Shown here one piece after another: positions 908 to 11,967 of a DNA stretch of 18,729 bases. A program made the position numbers and the translations under genes. A model generated the notes under the pieces. The model saw only the letters and a program-made list of their open reading frames with translations. It searched no databases and had not been told where the DNA came from. Every line of letters begins with the position of its first letter. Within the stretch, counting starts at the first letter, position 1. This DNA comes from an archaeon (lineage in GTDB: Archaea; Asgardarchaeota; Thorarchaeia; Thorarchaeales; Thorarchaeaceae): positions 1 through 18,729 of the forward strand of contig JAJRZD010000076.1 in assembly GCA_024275415.1 (NCBI GenBank). Direction: 5' to 3'.

Positions 908-1288
908 CTAGCTGTCGTCCTTCTTCTGTCGTTTCTCGTAATCCTCAATCGCCTTGTGAAGTGCGTCTGCTGCAAGGTTAGAGCAGTGCATCTTCTGAGG
1001 GGGCAGACCGTCCAATTCCTCGGCGACCTGTCCGCGAGTCAGCTTCTTTGCTTCCTCGATGGTCATTCCTATCGCCATCTCAGTGGTCACTGATGATGTG
1101 GCTATCGCCGCGACACATCCAAAGGTTTCCACCTTCGCATCCACTATCACGCCGTCTTTCACTTTTACAAAGAGTCTGAGCATGTCACCACACACGGGGT
1201 TTCCCACTTCGCCGACGCCATCGGGGTCTTCCATGCGGCCCATGTTCTTCGGGTTCGTGAAATGCTCACGGACTTTCTCTGAGTACAC
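908..1288 (-). CDS. iscU: Fe-S cluster scaffold protein IscU/NifU-N
   Basis: MYSEKVREHF start, GNPVCGD (C33, D35), FGC (C58) and LPPQKMHC (H101, C102). GTG start preceded by an AAGGTGA ribosome-binding site. Confidence 0.97.
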   Translation of the reverse strand: MYSEKVREHFTNPKNMGRMEDPDGVGEVGNPVCGDMLRLFVKVKDGVIVDAKVETFGCVAAIATSSVTTEMAIGMTIEEAKKLTRGQVAEELDGLPPQKMHCSNLAADALHKAIEDYEKRQKKDDS

Positions 1289-1349: not shown

Positions 1350-2564
1350 TCACCAATCATCTCCAGGGACATCATGGTGATGGTCGTCTTCAGGCTCCGT
1401 GTTAGCGAAATACTGTCCGTGTCTGATCGGGCTGAATTCTCGGAGTCGTTCCACTGCTGGGACAAGGGCATCGATGAACCCGTCAATTTCCTCTTTGGTA
1501 TTGTTCCTTGAGAACGATATCCGCAACGAGCCATGAGATACCTCAGGTGGTAGTCCGATTGCCTTCAAGACATGGCTCCCCTGAAGCGTCTTTGAGGAGC
1601 ACGCGGAGCCTGTTGCTACCGAGTATCCGAACATGTCGAGCTGGACGAGCATACTTTCGCCCTCGATGAACTCGACAAGCATGCTGAAAAGACCAGGTAT
1701 CCGATTCGTGGGATGACCTGTGAACCGGATGTCACTGATTCTTTCGGAGACCTTCTCCTTGACATACGCAGCGAGCTCGTTCAGGTGTTTAACATCATTG
1801 GGGTTCCAGATCTCGACTGCCTTGGCAAACCCGACAATGGCAGGGATGTTCTCGACTCCGGGGCGGAGCCTTCGTTCTTCATCGCCTCCCTCGTGGAGTC
1901 TGTCGATTCTCGTCCCCCTGCGGATGTACAGCGCACCCGCGCCCTTGGGGCCATGTATCAGATGGGCATCGACAGTGATGAGATCCACCATGACCTTCTC
2001 AGTATCGATAGGCATCTTCATGAAAGTCTGTGTGGCGTCCGTGTGGAACAACACGCCGGCGGCCTTGGTGATTTTGGCTATCTCCTCGATGGGCTGGACA
2101 GTCCCAATCTCACCGTTTCCATGTTGGATAGTAACGAGGACTGTATCTTCCTTTATGGCACTCTTCAGTTGTTCCAGACTTATCAGGCCGTACTCGTCAA
2201 CATCAAGATACTCGATCTCGTACCCAGCCCCTTCGAGGCGAGCCAGTGACCTGAGTACTGACTGCACTTCGATTGGCGATGTGATGATGTGTCTTCCTTT
2301 CTTCTTGTTGGCTCTCGCAACACCACGAGTTGCTAGGTTATTTGATTCGGTCGCACCAGATGTGAAGATGATAGCTCGGGGATCGGTATTGAGAGACTCC
2401 GCAATGGTCTTTCGAGCATTCTCCATCCCCATCACTGCTCCTACATCCTGTGAGTGACTCAGTTCCAGTCCTGCCGTCCCGTAATGCTCACGGAAGTACG
2501 GAAGCATTGCCTCTATGACCCTTTCATCCACTTGAGTAGAGTTAGCGTTGTCAAAGTATGCCAT
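1350..2564 (-). CDS. iscS: IscS/NifS-family (class V aminotransferase fold) protein with degenerate PLP site; probably not an active cysteine desulfurase
   Basis: Family motifs YFDNANST, IIFTSGATESNN, FHTDATQ, HGPKG, GSACSS (C322), SHVLKAIG and GSLRISF, adjacent to iscU. The Schiff-base Lys position is Leu202 and the stacking His position is Val100. Confidence 0.93.
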   Translation of the reverse strand: MAYFDNANSTQVDERVIEAMLPYFREHYGTAGLELSHSQDVGAVMGMENARKTIAESLNTDPRAIIFTSGATESNNLATRGVARANKKKGRHIITSPIEVQSVLRSLARLEGAGYEIEYLDVDEYGLISLEQLKSAIKEDTVLVTIQHGNGEIGTVQPIEEIAKITKAAGVLFHTDATQTFMKMPIDTEKVMVDLITVDAHLIHGPKGAGALYIRRGTRIDRLHEGGDEERRLRPGVENIPAIVGFAKAVEIWNPNDVKHLNELAAYVKEKVSERISDIRFTGHPTNRIPGLFSMLVEFIEGESMLVQLDMFGYSVATGSACSSKTLQGSHVLKAIGLPPEVSHGSLRISFSRNNTKEEIDGFIDALVPAVERLREFSPIRHGQYFANTEPEDDHHHDVPGDDW

Positions 2565-2570
2565 ACCACA

Positions 2571-3029
2571 TCAGTCCTTACAAGCAGAGCATTCAGTGTC
2601 TACATGGGCGCAGTATTCCTTGTGGACATCACAAAGAGTACCTTCCCTGCGGAGTATCTCGATCAACTTGTTGATTTCCCGAGTCATTGTTTCATAAACA
2701 TAATTACCCTCATCTCGGGCATCCCATGCGTCGATGATAACGTCTGCTGACTTCCTGACAGCAGGGATGACCTTTGCTGGGATCTCGACTTGGTCTCCTC
2801 GTGACCGCTTGGACTTGCTTAACTTGTATTGTGTGACGGCTGGTTCCGTGACACCTAGCATCTGAGCAATCTGCTTCTGGGGAATTCCTTTCTCAATCAT
2901 GGTTCTTGTCAGCTCACGCCGTATTGCAGGAAGTACGTACCAGACTTCTACCTCCTGTGGCATGAGCCAGGTTCTTCGTTTCTTCCTCTTTTCAGTCGGG
3001 TTACTTGCCAAAATCAATGCCTCGGTCAC
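2571..3029 (-). CDS. Archaeal HTH transcriptional regulator (COG2522-like) with C-terminal Cys/His metal-binding tail
   Basis: MPQEVEVWYVLPAIRRELTR, HTH region GIPQKQIAQMLGVTEPAVTQY and tail CDVHKEYCAHVDTECSAC. Its stop lies 6 nt before the iscS start. Alternative ATG start at 2963. Confidence 0.85.
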   Translation of the reverse strand: MTEALILASNPTEKRKKRRTWLMPQEVEVWYVLPAIRRELTRTMIEKGIPQKQIAQMLGVTEPAVTQYKLSKSKRSRGDQVEIPAKVIPAVRKSADVIIDAWDARDEGNYVYETMTREINKLIEILRREGTLCDVHKEYCAHVDTECSACKD

Positions 3030-3095: not shown

Positions 3096-3254
3096 CAGTA
3101 ATACACATCAAGAGACCATTTCACATTGTGAACTCCAATCAAAGCGAAAAGCTCGATTTCATACCCAAAACAACGAACATCTTAAATCACTCTAAACATA
3201 ACCTTATATTTGCACCTCCCCAAAGCTAATTGTTATCCAAGCTGGTGGCCACTA

Positions 3255-3851
3255 ATGTCCAAACACGACAGTACCAATGAAGAGAGCGCCGGTCAAAGCA
3301 AGAATGTAACGTTGGACGACATTACTGGTTTGCTGAACGAAATCGCACTTCAAAAACATGTTGCGCAAGACGAGCTTGCAAAAATGGTTATAGCCGAACT
3401 GGAAATCCATGATGAAACTCTTCTGAACTTTGCCTATATCGAGGCGGAGAATGTCCTGAATAGCGCGTCGTATTCGAGTATAGCTGTTGAAGACAGGATT
3501 CTGCTCATCCCTCATTGCCTACGGGATCGTGAACACTGCATCGCCCCTGTGGACGAAGAGGGATATCATTGCCAGAAGTGTGGCAGATGCATAATCAATG
3601 ATATCACCTTGAAAGCGGAAGCAAAAGGCATCAAGTGGTACATGGTAGGCGGAGGGTCTCATGCAATGCGAATTGTGAAGAATGCAAGGCCACGAGCTGT
3701 TCTTGGGATTGCTTGTTTCGATGATGCAAAAGCTGCGACTGAGAAGATAGGAGCGTATGGTATTCCCACACAATCAGTCCTGTTATCGAAAGACGGATGT
3801 GTGGATACCGAGGTTGATTTTGAAAGAGTGTCACGAGTAATGGATCTCTGA
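3255..3851 (+). CDS. DUF116-family Cys-rich protein, putative Fe-S binding
   Basis: RILLIPHCLR, HCQKCGRC, VGGGS, VLGIAC and DGCVDT motifs are typical of DUF116. The ATG at 3255 follows GGTGG; the ORF track starts at 3210. Confidence 0.88.
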   Translation: MSKHDSTNEESAGQSKNVTLDDITGLLNEIALQKHVAQDELAKMVIAELEIHDETLLNFAYIEAENVLNSASYSSIAVEDRILLIPHCLRDREHCIAPVDEEGYHCQKCGRCIINDITLKAEAKGIKWYMVGGGSHAMRIVKNARPRAVLGIACFDDAKAATEKIGAYGIPTQSVLLSKDGCVDTEVDFERVSRVMDL

Positions 3852-3929: not shown

Positions 3930-6176
3930 TCAAGCCTTGTGAAATCGGATTTCGAAAACGGCACCTTTCGAATAGTCACCTGGGATCCGATCCCTCATCG
4001 TGATTGAACCACCGTATCGTTCAACAAGGCTTTTGACAACGGACAGTCCAAGTCCGGTTCCCCTTGCGCCATCCATGTACCTTGAAAAGAGATGTGCCCG
4101 TTTCTCGGGGGGAATCCCTGAGCCATGGTCGCTGATACTGACCACCCAATATCTATGCTTGGAGTCATCCTCTGAAGTGATCTTCACTTCAATTGTTTCG
4201 TTTTCAGGACTGTGCTGGATTGCATTTAGGAGTAGGTTTGTGAAGATATCGTTTATGAAATGATCTGCAAGCACATAGTACGTCCCTTCTTCATAATCGA
4301 TGACAAGCCGCATGCTCTTGGCATCACCTTTGCAGATTAGCGCAAACGAATCCTTGATGTGTTTCACAACATCATATCTGATAAGGTTGACAGTGCTTTC
4401 ATAGCCTATTCGGAGGATACGTTCCACATTATTGATTAACGACCCAGCCCTGTGTAGTGCTTCACGAATGACGCTGAGATGCTTCTTTATGGGCCGGGTT
4501 GTAGCATCATCCAATTCAAGAATGTCGATTGTTGTGATTGCTTGTTGATGATAGTTCCGGATATCATGGACGAGAAGGTCAGAGAAGACAGTTGCTCTTT
4601 TCCGTGCCTGCTCCGCTGCGAACATCCACTGTAGATATGCTATGCCAATCAGGAGTGGCCCCAATGATAGGCCCACAACACGGATAAGATGTGCCACCCA
4701 CCAGCCTACGGTCCAAATGCCATACACCGAGATGAGAATGTTTGGCACAATCCAGACTGAGAGAACCATGATGGATATTATTTCTATTCGGAGCTCTGCG
4801 ATAGATATGCGGGAGCGAAGGAAGAAGATGTAGGAAAAGAGAAGGATCACGAATATATTCAGAACTAACAGGATTGCATTCTTTTCAATATTCGAGAACA
4901 AATCTTGAATTGTTTGTACGGCTGTCGCATTGATGACCAGCACCATAAGCAATGCGAAAATGGCTGCGCCGACAATCCGGGAGATAGTGGGAGCGTATTT
5001 CAAGTCAGGCTTCTTCAACGTCCAGGCAATGGCTAACATGAAGAATATGGCTGTGAGTACGCTCCCAATGATATCACCTATCAAGGTGATATTAAGGTCT
5101 GATTCAAGTGCCGGTAACTCAAAGATTACTGTGTTGATATCAATGATGGCCCAGTTCAGAAAAATAAGAACAAGAGGAGTATGAATAGGGTCTGGTTCCC
5201 TTTTTGAAAATGCGAGGATTAGAATGATCATCTGCACTGCAATGAACAGGCCCATATACTTCGAAACTGCATAAAGGTTCAAGTCCAATACTGTCAGTCC
5301 AAAGGTCACAATCTCCAATAGCATGGTTGTGAAAAAAGGAAGGATAGTCAATGCCATCAATGCAATGACATACGCGAACGATAGTCGTTTTGATGCGCCA
5401 TAGCCTTTGAGAATGAAGAACGTGAGAACTGTAAAGAGGAGTGCCAATCCAAACAATTGGAGGTGTATGGAAACTACCCAGAAGCTAGAGAAATGGTAGA
5501 CTGAGAGAATGAGAGGGATGGAAGACAATGCAAAGACTGCGATAGTCGAAGCACAAAAACCCATAGGTACATCCTCAAGAAGAGCGGCAGATCCAGTCGC
5601 TTTTCGTACTAATAGAAAGGAACCGCCAACGATTCCAAGTATCCCAATCAGATCAACGGCCAGTAACTCAACCACTGTCAATAATGGGAGGATGCTATAA
5701 GAAAACAAGAAGACTATGAGAACGCCTCCCAGAAGCATAGATGCACGAAAGTAGCGCCACTTGAACAATGTGTACAATCTAGAACCTTCGTGCATATTCA
5801 GTGCAATGACCAAGAATAGGATGAATAACAGCGTCGTGATAATATCGCCTGAGTGAACTACAGAGTCGATTGAAGGAGGACTGTGTGCTGTCAGTCCATA
5901 ATATGCCTTACCGATATAGATGAGGCTCAAGAATAAGAAGGGTATGTGGACTGGATATTGCCATCCTGCATTGTGACCTCTTCGTACGACAAGAATGGCT
6001 CCAACAAGCATCAGTGACAGGATTGCCATCTGGGTATCGAGTACAACATGGATGTGAGAGGAATGCACATCTAAAATAGCAACGTAATATAGCAACCAGC
6101 TGAAAGTAGCTATAGTTAACACTATGATGGCGGAATATATTATCGTGTGCATCCCATTCATCCGTCTTAGCATCAC
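3930..6176 (-). CDS. Multi-pass membrane sensor histidine kinase (~16 TM + HisKA + HATPase_c)
   Basis: H-box DLLVHDIRN (H537), N-box FTNLLLNAIQHS, G1 ISDHGSGIP, F-box LFSRY and G2 GTGLGL, preceded by ~515 hydrophobic residues. Confidence 0.93.
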   Translation of the reverse strand: MMLRRMNGMHTIIYSAIIVLTIATFSWLLYYVAILDVHSSHIHVVLDTQMAILSLMLVGAILVVRRGHNAGWQYPVHIPFLFLSLIYIGKAYYGLTAHSPPSIDSVVHSGDIITTLLFILFLVIALNMHEGSRLYTLFKWRYFRASMLLGGVLIVFLFSYSILPLLTVVELLAVDLIGILGIVGGSFLLVRKATGSAALLEDVPMGFCASTIAVFALSSIPLILSVYHFSSFWVVSIHLQLFGLALLFTVLTFFILKGYGASKRLSFAYVIALMALTILPFFTTMLLEIVTFGLTVLDLNLYAVSKYMGLFIAVQMIILILAFSKREPDPIHTPLVLIFLNWAIIDINTVIFELPALESDLNITLIGDIIGSVLTAIFFMLAIAWTLKKPDLKYAPTISRIVGAAIFALLMVLVINATAVQTIQDLFSNIEKNAILLVLNIFVILLFSYIFFLRSRISIAELRIEIISIMVLSVWIVPNILISVYGIWTVGWWVAHLIRVVGLSLGPLLIGIAYLQWMFAAEQARKRATVFSDLLVHDIRNYHQQAITTIDILELDDATTRPIKKHLSVIREALHRAGSLINNVERILRIGYESTVNLIRYDVVKHIKDSFALICKGDAKSMRLVIDYEEGTYYVLADHFINDIFTNLLLNAIQHSPENETIEVKITSEDDSKHRYWVVSISDHGSGIPPEKRAHLFSRYMDGARGTGLGLSVVKSLVERYGGSITMRDRIPGDYSKGAVFEIRFHKA

Positions 6177-6864: not shown

Positions 6865-7034
6865 CCCATCTATTCAGAAACGAACCTTCAGGTTAAGAGG
6901 CCCGGTTCATCATATATTCGTGTGCAGACAATCTGTAATAGGTCTTTACATCTGCACCGGACACAATGTCCACAATTATGATGGTGGTACACACAATTCG
7001 ATTTGTTGATAAGAAGCCAGTACTATTCTTGGGT

Positions 7035-7772
7035 ATGGTGACTCCCATTCGTGCCCTCAAGGCTGCTGCTGCTGTCATCAGTGAGTCCACATATATGGTC
7101 GCTCTTACCGGAGCTGGGATCAGCAGGGAATCAAACGTGCCAACATTCAGGGGTACTGATGGACTGTGGCGTAACTACGACCCCATGGAGCTAGCGACAC
7201 CTCAAGCATTCGAGCGAGACCCAATGCTTGTCTGGGAATGGTACTCGTGGCGTCAGGGACTGATTCTTGAGTGCGAACCTAACCCTGCTCATCATATCTT
7301 GGCAAAATGGGAAAAGGAAGATATCTTAGGACATATCATAACCCAGAATGTGGACGACCTTCATCGTCGAGCAGGCTCAAAGGGCATTACGAAACTGCAT
7401 GGGGACATATTCAAGGTGAAATGCACGAGATGCACATACCGAGCGATTATTCCAGCTCCCCCTAATGGTGTACCAACATGCCCTGATTGTGAGTCATTAC
7501 TACGTCCTGATGTCGTGTGGTTTGGAGAGAGCCTTGACCAGCAGGTGATGGATGATGTACGTGACGAACTGAACCAGTCTGATGTTATCATCGTCATAGG
7601 GACTTCTGGTATCGTTCAGCCTGCGGCATCATTCCCTCTCATCGTAAAGAGATGGGGTGAGGTGGTCGAGGTGAATCCCGAAGAAACACCCATAACAGTC
7701 ATCGCAGATGTTCATGTCGCTGGAAAGGCGGGGGAAGCATTGCCCCAGATCGATCAGTTAATCCAAAGATAG
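7035..7772 (+). CDS. cobB: NAD+-dependent protein deacylase, Sir2/CobB family (class III)
   Basis: LTGAGISRESNVPTFRG, TQNVDDLH, LHG, Zn motifs CTRC/CPDC, RPDVVWFGE, GTSGIVQPAA and VNPE. Start refined to the ATG at 7035; the ORF track starts at 6966. Confidence 0.96.
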   Translation: MVTPIRALKAAAAVISESTYMVALTGAGISRESNVPTFRGTDGLWRNYDPMELATPQAFERDPMLVWEWYSWRQGLILECEPNPAHHILAKWEKEDILGHIITQNVDDLHRRAGSKGITKLHGDIFKVKCTRCTYRAIIPAPPNGVPTCPDCESLLRPDVVWFGESLDQQVMDDVRDELNQSDVIIVIGTSGIVQPAASFPLIVKRWGEVVEVNPEETPITVIADVHVAGKAGEALPQIDQLIQR

Positions 7773-9302: not shown

Positions 9303-10337
9303 ATGGTAGTTAGCACCGCTCATTCTCAAAGGTGGCATGGCTTGAAGATTCTGTTAACAGGAGCGACTGGGTTCATCGGGCGGAAGCTGGCTAAAAGGTT
9401 GGTCGACGAAGGCAATGATCTTTATGCTCTCATCCGTTCGACGAGCAATACGGCGGGACTTCCCGAAGCGGTTGAGTTCAGAGAGGCGGATCTCCTCACC
9501 TACGAGGGCCTTGAGAGGGTCGTAGAAGACATTCAAGTGGTCATCCATCTGGCAGCATACTTCGACTTCTATCCATCAGATGTGGATCTCCTGTACAGAG
9601 TGAATGTAGAAGGGACGAGGAATCTCATGAATGCCTGCGTTGGGACAAGTGTAGAGAGGTTCATCTATTGTTCGACAACGGAGGTCATCGGCCCCGTCAG
9701 ATACCCACCTGGGAACGAAGATACGGAACTGCGCCCACAGTTCGACTACTCGAAAAGCAAAGCGATGGCAGAGGATATTGTTCGAGAGATCACGACGGAC
9801 ACTGGATTGAGCCATGTCATCTTGCGGCCAACTGGAGTTATGGGCGAAGGTGATAGTTATACTGCAATGGAGCTTGTCCAGGCTATAAACAACAGGGAGA
9901 TACCCATCCTTCCCGGAGATGGACAAAAACATATCATGTATACTCATGTGGACGATGTGGTGGATGCCTTCGTGAAAGCAGTGACATCAAAAACAGCTGT
10001 GAACGAGACCTTGATCATCTGTCCCGATGAGCCCCTCACCTACAAAGAATTGATCCAGTTCCTTGGCGAAAAGCTGGGTGTTGAACCTCCCAAAAGGCGG
10101 ATTCCCACGAGCATTGCTAAGATTGGGATTGGACTCCTGAGCCCGATAAAGAACCGCAGAAAGAACACATTCCTATGGCACGCTAAGACCATCCAGAGCA
10201 TGGACGAAGACAGGTGGTACACGAATGCCAAGGCCAAACGACTCTTGGACTGGGCTCCAAAGTACTCAATGGAGGAAGGCATCGCTCGACAGATCGAGTG
10301 GGCCTGGGAAACAAATCTATTGGAGAAACGAGTGTGA
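9303..10337 (+). CDS. NAD-dependent epimerase/dehydratase (extended SDR)
   Basis: KILLTGATGFIG Rossmann motif, VIHLAA, YCSTTEV, catalytic YSKSK (YxxxK) and ILRPTGVMG. Confidence 0.93.
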   Translation: MVVSTAHSQRWHGLKILLTGATGFIGRKLAKRLVDEGNDLYALIRSTSNTAGLPEAVEFREADLLTYEGLERVVEDIQVVIHLAAYFDFYPSDVDLLYRVNVEGTRNLMNACVGTSVERFIYCSTTEVIGPVRYPPGNEDTELRPQFDYSKSKAMAEDIVREITTDTGLSHVILRPTGVMGEGDSYTAMELVQAINNREIPILPGDGQKHIMYTHVDDVVDAFVKAVTSKTAVNETLIICPDEPLTYKELIQFLGEKLGVEPPKRRIPTSIAKIGIGLLSPIKNRRKNTFLWHAKTIQSMDEDRWYTNAKAKRLLDWAPKYSMEEGIARQIEWAWETNLLEKRV

Positions 10338-10341
10338 TACA

Positions 10342-11967
10342 ATGGATGCACTTCTTGGATTTCTTTTGATCATAACCCCGATTGTGCTTGCGGTCATCAT
10401 GCTGATAGTGTTTCACAAGGCTGCAGATACCACCGGAGTGGTCGTATGGTTGACCACCATGGTGATAGCGATAGTCGCATTCCAGACTGATGTTGGCGTC
10501 GCCCTAACAGCCAGTGTAGTGGGTATCGTAAGATCATTCCCGATATCCCTGATGGTCGCCACGTCGATCCTGATGATGACCTATATGCAGGAAACGGGAG
10601 CATTACAGAGGCTCATTGTCTTCTTTAAGACGCTTGGCGGAGGTAGCAGACCTATGCAGATTATGTTGATTAGCCTAGGACTGGGTCTCTTCCTTGTGGG
10701 CATCGGCGCTACACCTGTTTCGATGCTACCTCCAGTCATGCTGGCACTTGGCTTCTCACCTCTGGTGGCTGTGGCACTGCCCTCTATAGGGTACGACCCT
10801 CTTACGACATTTGCTCTTCTTGGCGTCCCTGCCCAAGTGTTCACTGACATCTACTCGGCAGTATCTGGGAGTCCAATCGAGCTTTGGTATGCGGGTTCGG
10901 TATTTGCTGCGTTTATGCCTGTCGTTTCAGTTGGGATTGCGGTCGCGATGCTCTGGATTGCAGGCGGGAAGAAGCTTCTCCTCAACCGCGAGGGACTGCT
11001 GCTCGCAGTGATAGCAGGAGGGACAGCCGGTATCACGGCAATAATCTGCAATCTTGAAGTTGTGAACCTGACTCGTCTGACAAATGTCTTTGCTGGCGCT
11101 GCGGTTCTTGCTGTGCTTTTTATCTATAATCGGATAACCAAGAAACCGTTCATCGACCGGAGCCAATTGAAAGAGGAAGACCACGAGGTAGAGAGTAAGA
11201 TGAGCCTGAAACGGGCAAGCATTCCTTGGGTGCTCCTTGTCATCCTCTCACTGGTGACGACGCTCGTAGAGCCAATCAAGTACCTTCTTGCAGTGCAACT
11301 CGATTTTGTCATCTTCTTTACCCAGTACCAAGGATTGGATCTGGTCACCCGCGACCTTGTGATCAGCACAAAGTTCCTCTGGCAGGCATACACTCTAATG
11401 CTCATTGCTACCATTGCCTCAATGCCCTTCTTCAACAACGACAAGACTGTGTTGAAGAATACGTTCAACAAGTTCGTAAAACGTGCCCCTCGCCCTGTCC
11501 TTGCAGCAGCAATCTTCTTTGCGATGGCAGAAGTGCTGAATTTCAGTGGCTTTGTCCCTGACGCTGGAGGAGTGTGGGTTTTCCCCGCGGATCCGACGAA
11601 CAACATGGTCTATCTCCTTGCATCAATGACATCGGCATCGCTGGGGGCGGCATATCCACTTACAGCAGCATTCCTTGGACTCCTTGGCGGGTTCATCTCA
11701 GGCTCAGAGACCTCAGCTATCGCTATGTTCACCAACTATCATTATCAGGCAAGTACTGCAATCGGAGCGAATGCCGTTGTCGTGGCTGCCTCTAATGGGA
11801 TAGGAGGGGGCTTGGCCAGCGTTCTAAGCCCGGCAAAGATACAGAACGCTGCAGCTGTGATTGATGAGATTGGCATCGAAGGACAAGTGATACGGTACGG
11901 GTTGGTTGTAGCTATCATCATGACAGCAATCGTTGCGGTCATGACGATGCTGTGGGCGTTCGTTTGA
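10342..11967 (+). CDS. lctP: L-lactate permease (LctP) family transporter
   Basis: Many hydrophobic helices with the C-terminal LGGFISGSETS and GGGLASVLSPAKI motifs of the LctP family. The ATG at 10342 lies 4 nt after the SDR stop; the ORF-track extension to 10225 overlaps the SDR. Confidence 0.85.
   Translation: MDALLGFLLIITPIVLAVIMLIVFHKAADTTGVVVWLTTMVIAIVAFQTDVGVALTASVVGIVRSFPISLMVATSILMMTYMQETGALQRLIVFFKTLGGGSRPMQIMLISLGLGLFLVGIGATPVSMLPPVMLALGFSPLVAVALPSIGYDPLTTFALLGVPAQVFTDIYSAVSGSPIELWYAGSVFAAFMPVVSVGIAVAMLWIAGGKKLLLNREGLLLAVIAGGTAGITAIICNLEVVNLTRLTNVFAGAAVLAVLFIYNRITKKPFIDRSQLKEEDHEVESKMSLKRASIPWVLLVILSLVTTLVEPIKYLLAVQLDFVIFFTQYQGLDLVTRDLVISTKFLWQAYTLMLIATIASMPFFNNDKTVLKNTFNKFVKRAPRPVLAAAIFFAMAEVLNFSGFVPDAGGVWVFPADPTNNMVYLLASMTSASLGAAYPLTAAFLGLLGGFISGSETSAIAMFTNYHYQASTAIGANAVVVAASNGIGGGLASVLSPAKIQNAAAVIDEIGIEGQVIRYGLVVAIIMTAIVAVMTMLWAFV

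Follow-up and report, generated by a model that had tools for sequence, protein, structure and literature searches.

A lysine-less IscS-like protein encoded between a putative regulator and IscU in a Thorarchaeia genome

The locus and the changed residues of IscS*

We analyzed an 18,729-nucleotide stretch of DNA from an archaeon of the family Thorarchaeaceae (the window; contig JAJRZD010000076.1 of assembly GCA_024275415.1). The open reading frame at 1350-2564 of its minus strand encodes a protein of 404 residues, which resembles the cysteine desulfurases IscS and NifS but is devoid of the lysine that forms the Schiff base with pyridoxal 5'-phosphate (PLP). We refer to this protein as IscS*, and its own numbering is used throughout unless E. 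coli is specified. The gene is the middle one of three in a row on this strand, the order being a helix-turn-helix (HTH) protein, a gap of 6 nt, IscS*, a gap of 61 nt and an IscU scaffold (Table 1). The ligands of IscU are intact, with C33, D35, C58, H101 and C102 invariant in 8 orthologues. The HTH protein is probably a metal- or iron-sulfur (Fe-S)-sensing regulator, judging from its sequence. An earlier note, prepared by a model from the letters of the window, had described IscS* as a pseudo-enzyme with an intact cysteine loop, and the present analysis follows up that description.

Table 1. Coordinates of the features discussed; the last four rows lie elsewhere in the same genome.
Feature	Position	Strand	Evidence and remarks
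IscS*, IscS/NifS type, class V aminotransferase fold, without Schiff-base Lys	1350..2564	-	PF00266 (Aminotran_5), full length, 241 bits
Leu202 codon CTG, site of PLP Schiff-base Lys (E. coli Lys206)	1959-1961	-	translation and alignment
Val100 codon GTG, site of PLP-stacking His (E. coli His104)	2265-2267	-	translation and alignment
Loop D228-E-E-R-R-L-R-P-G-V237, in place of canonical GQERG-x-RSGT	1854..1883	-	clade alignment
Cys loop T318-GSAC322SSK-T326, type I mobile loop	1587..1613	-	Cys322 codon TGC at 1599-1601
C-terminal tail, residues 383-404: G-x-Y-F-A, acidic run, D-H-H-H-D, [LIV]-P, C-terminal x-D-D-W	1353..1418	-	clade alignment
IscU scaffold, 126 aa, downstream of IscS*	908..1288	-	NifU_N 157 bits; TIGR03419 189.8, above cut-off
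HTH protein, 152 aa, with C-x2-H-x3-C-x-H-x4-C-x2-C C-terminal tail, upstream of IscS*	2571..3029	-	weak HTH Pfam matches, none above threshold
DUF116 protein with Cys-rich motif, divergent from the operon	3210-3851	+	
748-aa membrane histidine kinase, SIR2-family deacetylase, NAD-dependent epimerase, lactate permease	3930-6176; 6966-7772; 9303-11967	-; +; +	
Second Fe-S module: tusA, dsrE, IscS of the A. fulgidus type, 258-aa IscU fusion	ends of C79 (2087-3705) and C86 (1-1094)		IscS gene split between the contigs; SSNDIYGPKG; E 4e-109 to 4eb5
dnd DNA-phosphorothioation cluster: DndA (349 aa), DndE, DndD	C12 (L002:1564-3881)		Lys kept in DndA
Lone SufS-family cysteine desulfurase	C10:6983-8224		SVHK and RSGAHC canonical; beside a replication factor A gene
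SufS-like protein, 403 aa	C43:21762-22973		Lys lost (ASANMSF); RSGLLC Cys kept

IscS* falls below every NCBIfam equivalog cut-off, its best matches being TIGR03402 (NifS, 408.3 bits for a cut-off of 530.75) and TIGR02006 (IscS, 351.6 bits for a cut-off of 643.2). The translation reads DAHLIHGPKG, PIEVQSV, RLRPGVEN and ATGSACSSKT, and the motifs and codons that the earlier note had reported are exact to the codon. In the alignment to solved cysteine desulfurases, DAHL202 lies opposite SAHK, IEV100Q opposite IEHH(S), RPGV237EN opposite RAGTEN, and GSAC322 opposite GSAC. The E. coli numbering was taken from the match offsets to 1p3w and from the residue roles listed in PMC9978102. The site of the Schiff-base lysine, which is leucine in the window protein, is histidine in 64% of the members of its clade (described below) and L, R or V in the others, and it is lysine in all 140 canonical sequences compared. 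The site of the PLP-stacking histidine is occupied by V, T, H, R or S within the clade, and by histidine in 99% of the canonical sequences. Further changes are found at E. coli Ser203, a phosphate contact (Asp199 in IscS*), at Asn155 (Gly151) and at Thr243, a phosphate contact from the other subunit (Val237, with V or I across the clade). The equivalents of E. coli Asp180, Gln183, His205 and Arg354 are kept as Asp176, Gln179, His201 and Arg348, as is Thr72; the glutamine, still present in the window protein, is changed to histidine in most clade members. With leucine at the lysine site, IscS* is by its sequence not able to form the Lys-PLP aldimine, in agreement with the earlier note. The changes at Ser203 and Asn155 had escaped that note, as had a loop insertion, the remodeling of the pocket to a new state, the tail, the regulator and the SufB/D result, all of which are taken up below.

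We considered whether IscS* might nonetheless still be an enzyme, with PLP or pyridoxamine 5'-phosphate (PMP) held non-covalently, or with another lysine such as Lys207 in the role of the missing one, and with desulfurase or some other PLP-dependent activity. Asp176, Thr72, His201, Arg348 and Cys322 are all kept, which would suit such a role. In E. coli IscS, single mutation of His104, Gln183 or Lys206 abolishes the activity, although the K206A variant has been suggested to keep a very slow partial reaction (PMC9978102). In IscS*, however, the lysine, the stacking histidine, Asn155 and the phosphate-binding serine and threonine are changed together, and an aspartate is found at the phosphate site. 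Lys207 is equally invariant in the canonical enzymes and therefore does not represent a compensating gain. A catalytic residue would not be expected to vary as freely as the one at the lysine site does (L, H, R, V). We regard persisting enzymatic activity as very improbable. Having lost the Lys-PLP chemistry along with the greater part of its cofactor and substrate pocket, IscS* is probably without PLP or PMP.

The pocket was compared position by position between 56 clade members and 140 Lys-containing relatives. Where the canonical enzymes are conserved to 80% or more and the clade departs from them, nearly all of the positions are cofactor or substrate residues, known or likely. Five of them are relaxed, the residue being varied within the clade: positions 71 (Gly of the GxT phosphate loop), 100 (His), 179 (Gln), 202 (Lys) and 237 (Thr). 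A second set is newly fixed, with one residue, rare in the canonical sequences, in at least 95% of the clade: T30, G32, E34, L35 (95%), D40, D199, D228, E229 and R232. Five of these (E34, D40, D199, D228 and E229) are acidic. T30, G32, E34, L35 and D40 belong to the altered GNPSS loop, in which E34-L35 constitute a two-residue insertion. The canonical GQERG-x-RSGT loop binds, through its threonine, the phosphate of the PLP in the other subunit. In the loop that takes its place in IscS*, D228, E229, R232, P235 and G236 do not vary across the clade, and canonical sequences have these residues rarely or not at all.

The cysteine loop and the surface for IscU have been preserved. No other block of the protein is as conserved as T318-K325, which is invariant in 55 clade members, and the loop cysteine is present in 213 of 213 IscS-like sequences, Lys-containing and Lys-less alike. 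Residues 309-316, Glu347 and 379-391 of E. coli IscS contact IscU, and the E. coli protein lacking residues 376-404 does not bind it (PMC2854127). The corresponding parts of IscS* (303-310, E341 and 373-385) are among the invariant columns of the clade. As far as the alignments can tell, then, the PLP chemistry is lost and the pocket is rebuilt to a new, fixed and more acidic state, with the cysteine loop and the IscU surface kept. The AlphaFold2 model of IscS* has a predicted local distance difference test (pLDDT) value of 80.8, with low confidence in the inter-subunit loop, the cysteine loop and the tail. Its template modeling (TM) scores from Foldseek are 0.82-0.89 across NFS1, E. coli IscS and A. 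fulgidus IscS, with values of 0.82-0.86 to IscS and NFS1, so the fold is retained. The best matches of IscS* among solved structures are 9wep, 9wer, 9wew, 9wf8, 9wfb, 9wfe and 9wfy, variants, a few residues apart, of a 406-aa Lys-containing protein named as a cysteine desulfurase.

The protein ends in a tail of 22 residues, which is seen in nearly all clade members (terminal W in 84%, H395 in 91%) and in none of the other IscS-like matches. The tail directly follows the C-terminal helix that is equivalent to the IscU-contacting helix alpha12 of E. coli IscS (PMC2854127), and its composition suggests metal binding or the docking of a partner. A role in metal handling could be envisioned on this basis, whereby the acidic and histidine-containing pocket and the tail rich in histidine and acidic residues would take up Fe2+ or another cation for delivery to IscU, making IscS* an iron donor or gate and more than a partner on the sulfur side. 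The newly fixed residues are mostly acidic, H201, H202 (in 64% of the clade) and H204 are next to them, and the conserved D-H-H-H-D...D-D-W motif comes right after the helix that would contact IscU. This role is, however, read purely from composition; the tail is predicted to be disordered, and many members, the window protein included, have L, R or V in place of His202. We consider metal handling quite unlikely.

The IscS* clade and its relatives

Among 5.8 billion proteins, about 60 clusters are 64-85% identical to IscS*, and the next matches are at 52% or below. The named sources are metagenome-assembled genomes (MAGs) of Thorarchaeota, Promethearchaeota, Hermodarchaeota and Lokiarchaeota. 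In a set of 1.84 billion representatives at 50% identity the whole clade is one cluster (635 bits), with the next match at 400 bits. All of the roughly 60 close homologues are Lys-less; Asp199 is present in 96% of them, and the R-P-G motif and the cysteine loop are kept. Across six orthologues the proportion of synonymous differences (pS) is 0.78-0.95, which is saturated, and the proportion of nonsynonymous differences (pN) is 0.10-0.21. The sole unsaturated pair of orthologues gives a dN/dS ratio of 0.05, and 100 columns are invariant across 55 clade sequences. Purifying selection acts strongly on IscS*. That catalytic residues are lost is the one point that would speak for a decaying pseudogene or an error of assembly. 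This explanation is almost certainly wrong: the frame of 404 residues is intact, the same substitutions recur in the clusters from independent MAGs, and pN is low at saturated synonymous sites with many columns invariant. Neither the sequencing error nor the relaxed selection that the earlier note had named as grounds for refutation was borne out by this survey of the subfamily.

We computed trees of 213 and of 80 IscS-like proteins. IscS*, the A. fulgidus type, the IscS1 type and a further Asgard group with the motif SAHL each form a separate, well-supported clade, the support for the IscS* clade being 100%. Lys-containing sequences are found between the Lys-less clades, such that 10 and 7 changes between lysine and its absence are needed on the two trees. 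Independent loss of the lysine in IscS* and in the A. fulgidus type is thus favored, although not proven, in that the approximately unbiased (AU) test did not reject the union of the two (p 0.20, log-likelihood difference 45.6). The two types occur together in the same genomes as separate paralogues. The further Asgard group of Lys-less proteins (P0064-P0068 and P0081, of Thorarchaeota and Hodarchaeales) has the N-terminus YFCYGDT and the motif SAHLIYGPKG, with the stacking histidine changed to glutamine and RGGT kept. A Lys-containing clade of Heimdallarchaeota (P0072-P0076) is its sister group in the tree.

One of the closest known systems is IscS2 of A. fulgidus with IscU (PDB 4eb5, 4eb7 and 4hvk, and 4r5f for a D199K variant). 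Aspartate (Asp199) takes the place of the lysine, the protein is reported to have no desulfurase activity, and its cysteine ligates a [2Fe-2S] cluster on IscU (PMC7585200, PMC8918507, PMC13066941); the IscU in question was the D35A variant. The earlier note had recounted this correctly and had taken IscS* for a further-eroded version. Its account was incomplete in one respect, as A. fulgidus IscS is not cofactor-free: it carries PMP when crystallized by itself and PLP in the complex (PMC8918507). IscS* shares with it the type I fold (TM 0.84-0.89), the absence of the Schiff-base lysine, the retained cysteine loop and the adjacent IscU gene. It has indeed lost more of the cofactor contacts, since the A. 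fulgidus type keeps the stacking histidine (VEH), Ser203 (as SS) and RSG[ST], where IscS* reads IEV, VD and RPGV. The notion of erosion does not hold for its descent: IscS* is not an orthologue of the A. fulgidus type but a member of its own paralogous clade, it is without the S-S-N-D motif, and the same genome has the actual A. fulgidus-type orthologue (C79/C86). The two copies differ in context as well, IscS* having the histidine- and acid-rich tail and the upstream regulator but no tusA-dsrE, and the A. fulgidus-type copy having tusA-dsrE.

Other known systems are similar in part. IscS1 of M. acetivorans (MA0808, isc1 cluster) is likewise a Lys-less paralogue that adjoins IscU and keeps the cysteine loop. 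It was recovered in inclusion bodies, and its authors suggested a role like that of the A. fulgidus protein (PMC7585200). Unlike IscS*, it belongs to a separate clade (100% support), reads SAHT, IEDFPV and GSACFS, and has no tail rich in histidine and acidic residues. The minimal ISC system (MIS, Garcia et al.; reviewed in PMC13066941 and PMC12192291) resembles the IscS*-IscU pair in its two-gene core, from which chaperones, ferredoxin and an A-type carrier are absent. According to its descriptions, MIS includes a cysteine desulfurase, whereas desulfurase chemistry is predicted to be absent from IscS*-IscU. Finally, E. coli IscS and NFS1 share with IscS* the fold, the type I cysteine loop, the IscU-contact segments and the equivalents of Asp180 and Arg354, and differ from it at Lys206, His104, Asn155, Ser203 and Thr243, and at Gln183 in most clade members only. 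An inactive IscS paired with IscU is thus a known kind of protein. What is new is the separate lineage, the deeper remodeling of the pocket with re-fixed residues, the tail, the linkage to the regulator, and a genome with both IscU scaffolds beside a Lys-less IscS in which SufB/D were not found. Our literature searches for this Asgard clade found no description of it.

The pairing with IscU and the proposed role

The order of regulator, IscS* and IscU recurs in five Thorarchaeota loci, in one Lokiarchaeota locus and in another Asgard locus. The IscS-like and IscU-like pair is without chaperones or carriers in the window and in 9 related loci. In 19 of 20 other Thorarchaeota genomes carrying IscS*, the regulator gene is directly upstream in the same orientation. 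The complex of IscS* with IscU was predicted with a score of 0.39, for a best control of 0.10, and the three runs agree in at least 83% of the contacts, with partner pLDDT values of at least 88. Of 80 solved complexes, 58 attained the pass mark of this procedure, as did 2 of 110 mismatched pairs. At scores of 0.60 or lower, only 7 of the solved complexes attained it, together with both of the passing mismatches. The IscS*-IscU result is a weak pass.

We favor, as the likelier interpretation, that IscS* is a non-catalytic and probably cofactor-free protein, which binds IscU and supplies Cys322 in a cysteine-independent assembly of Fe-S clusters. The regulator, IscS* and IscU would be co-transcribed. 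IscS*, devoid of PLP and PMP in all probability, would form an (IscS*-IscU)2 complex with IscU, in which Cys322 would reach into the assembly site. There, the cysteine would act as the fourth ligand of a nascent [2Fe-2S] cluster, or as the point at which a thiol or persulfide is handed off. Free sulfide or carriers in trans would be the source of the sulfur, and not the desulfuration of cysteine by IscS*. For the A. fulgidus IscS-IscU pair, the supply of sulfur is stated to be unresolved in reviews (PMC8918507). A role other than that of a desulfurase, such as donor of a cysteine ligand, relay or structural partner, had been proposed in the earlier note. It appears to be the best reading of the sequence, because more cofactor contacts are lost than in A. 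fulgidus IscS, selection is purifying, and an intact IscU is adjacent.

Several observations weigh against this interpretation. IscU is not adjacent to IscS* in one Hermodarchaeota locus, and a gene of 350 aa stands between the two in one complete Thorarchaeota genome. The regulator is not dedicated to the IscS*-IscU module, as it persists in genomes without IscS*. Similar IscS-IscU complexes have already been solved, and the pass in the complex prediction may reflect only this likeness. A bound cofactor or other ligand is conceivable as well, given that Asp176, Thr72, His201 and Arg348 are kept and that A. fulgidus IscS holds PMP or PLP non-covalently.

The regulator is found in 53 of the 61 genomes of the class that we surveyed. 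In those without IscS*-IscU it occupies the same neighborhood, beside a gene for enoyl-CoA hydratase. As its locus is conserved with or without the pair, IscS*-IscU behaves as an insert that is either present or absent.

How strict anaerobes assemble Fe-S clusters with no desulfuration of cysteine is a question for which the IscS* clade offers a cleaner natural experiment than does the Archaeoglobus protein. The pocket has been rebuilt and the cysteine loop and the IscU-docking segments are invariant, which argues that the role of IscS in scaffolding or ligation is separable from its enzymology. The clade is found in the archaea closest to eukaryotes, and eukaryotic NFS1 was recently called Asgard-associated (PMC12872458), such that the diversity of IscS paralogues in Asgard archaea bears on the debate about NFS1.

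Sulfur donors and scaffolds in the genome and the class

The genome to which the window belongs is 3.5 Mb in size and 92.9% complete. It has only two NifU_N scaffolds, and each adjoins a Lys-less IscS. The one outside of the window is beside the A. fulgidus-type IscS, which is preceded by tusA and dsrE. This IscU has 258 residues and is fused to a tail similar to pyridine-nucleotide-disulfide oxidoreductases. The second Lys-containing IscS or SufS, for which the earlier note had recommended a search, was not found in pairing with IscU anywhere in this genome; only DndA and the lone SufS-family protein have the lysine. The heterodimer of IscS* with an active IscS, another idea of that note, is left without an obvious partner. 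Among the type I enzymes, DndA in its dnd cluster is alone in having the lysine. The internal TAA at the DndA locus was considered as a break in the gene and rejected, as it is the natural stop codon of the 349-aa protein. The SufS-like protein of C43 is, by its motifs, the type II counterpart of a Lys-less IscS. The SufBD core (PF01458) and SufE were not found in this genome at its 92.9% completeness; SufBD was found in 14 of 14 control genomes. Should both the pairing of the two IscU scaffolds with Lys-less IscS and the absence of SufB/D hold, the general assembly of Fe-S clusters in this genome would proceed without a scaffold-coupled desulfurase.

These findings bear on a second possible use of Cys322, as a relay that takes sulfane sulfur from a donor in trans and passes it as a persulfide to IscU. 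Candidate donors would be the SufS-family enzyme of C10, DndA and the carriers TusA and DsrE. The SufS-family gene has none of SufE, SufU or SufBCD as neighbors, and the protein, canonical in its SVHK and RSGAHC motifs, is without a SufE, SufU or SufBD partner in the genome; it is a possible sulfur donor in trans. The genome also has two TusA genes, and an invariant mobile cysteine loop would suit a relay as well as it would suit a ligand. On the other hand, no gene for a sulfur carrier or desulfurase is in or beside the IscS* operon at any of the loci examined, and it is the Archaeoglobus-type paralogue that is directly behind tusA and dsrE. We judge the relay to be somewhat unlikely.

The class was surveyed in 61 genomes, which are related to one another and many of which are incomplete. 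The A. fulgidus-type IscS is present in 51 of them, SufB in 29 and IscS* in 21. Both IscS* and SufB are seen in 5 genomes, IscS* only in 16, SufB only in 24 and neither in 16. The genera rich in IscS* (g1, g10, g13 and g15) are mostly without SufB. With the kinship and the incompleteness of the genomes, this complementarity of IscS* and SufB across the class is suggestive only. In a more elaborate version of the role that we favor, regulator, IscS* and IscU would make up a self-contained Fe-S assembly cassette independent of cysteine: the pocket and the tail would bind and deliver iron in the manner of frataxin, Cys322 would complete the ligation, sulfide would provide the sulfur, and the cassette would replace the SMS/SUF scaffold in the SufB-less Thorarchaeota genera. 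We hold this scheme to be unlikely as a whole.

The DUF116 gene, divergent from the operon, was considered as a member of the module and dropped, as none of five related loci was found to have it beside IscS*. In Lokiarchaeota and other Asgard loci (L089 and L091), too, the operon is flanked by genes for SIR2, the epimerase, lactate permease and a PAS histidine kinase, which indicates that the wider neighborhood is conserved.

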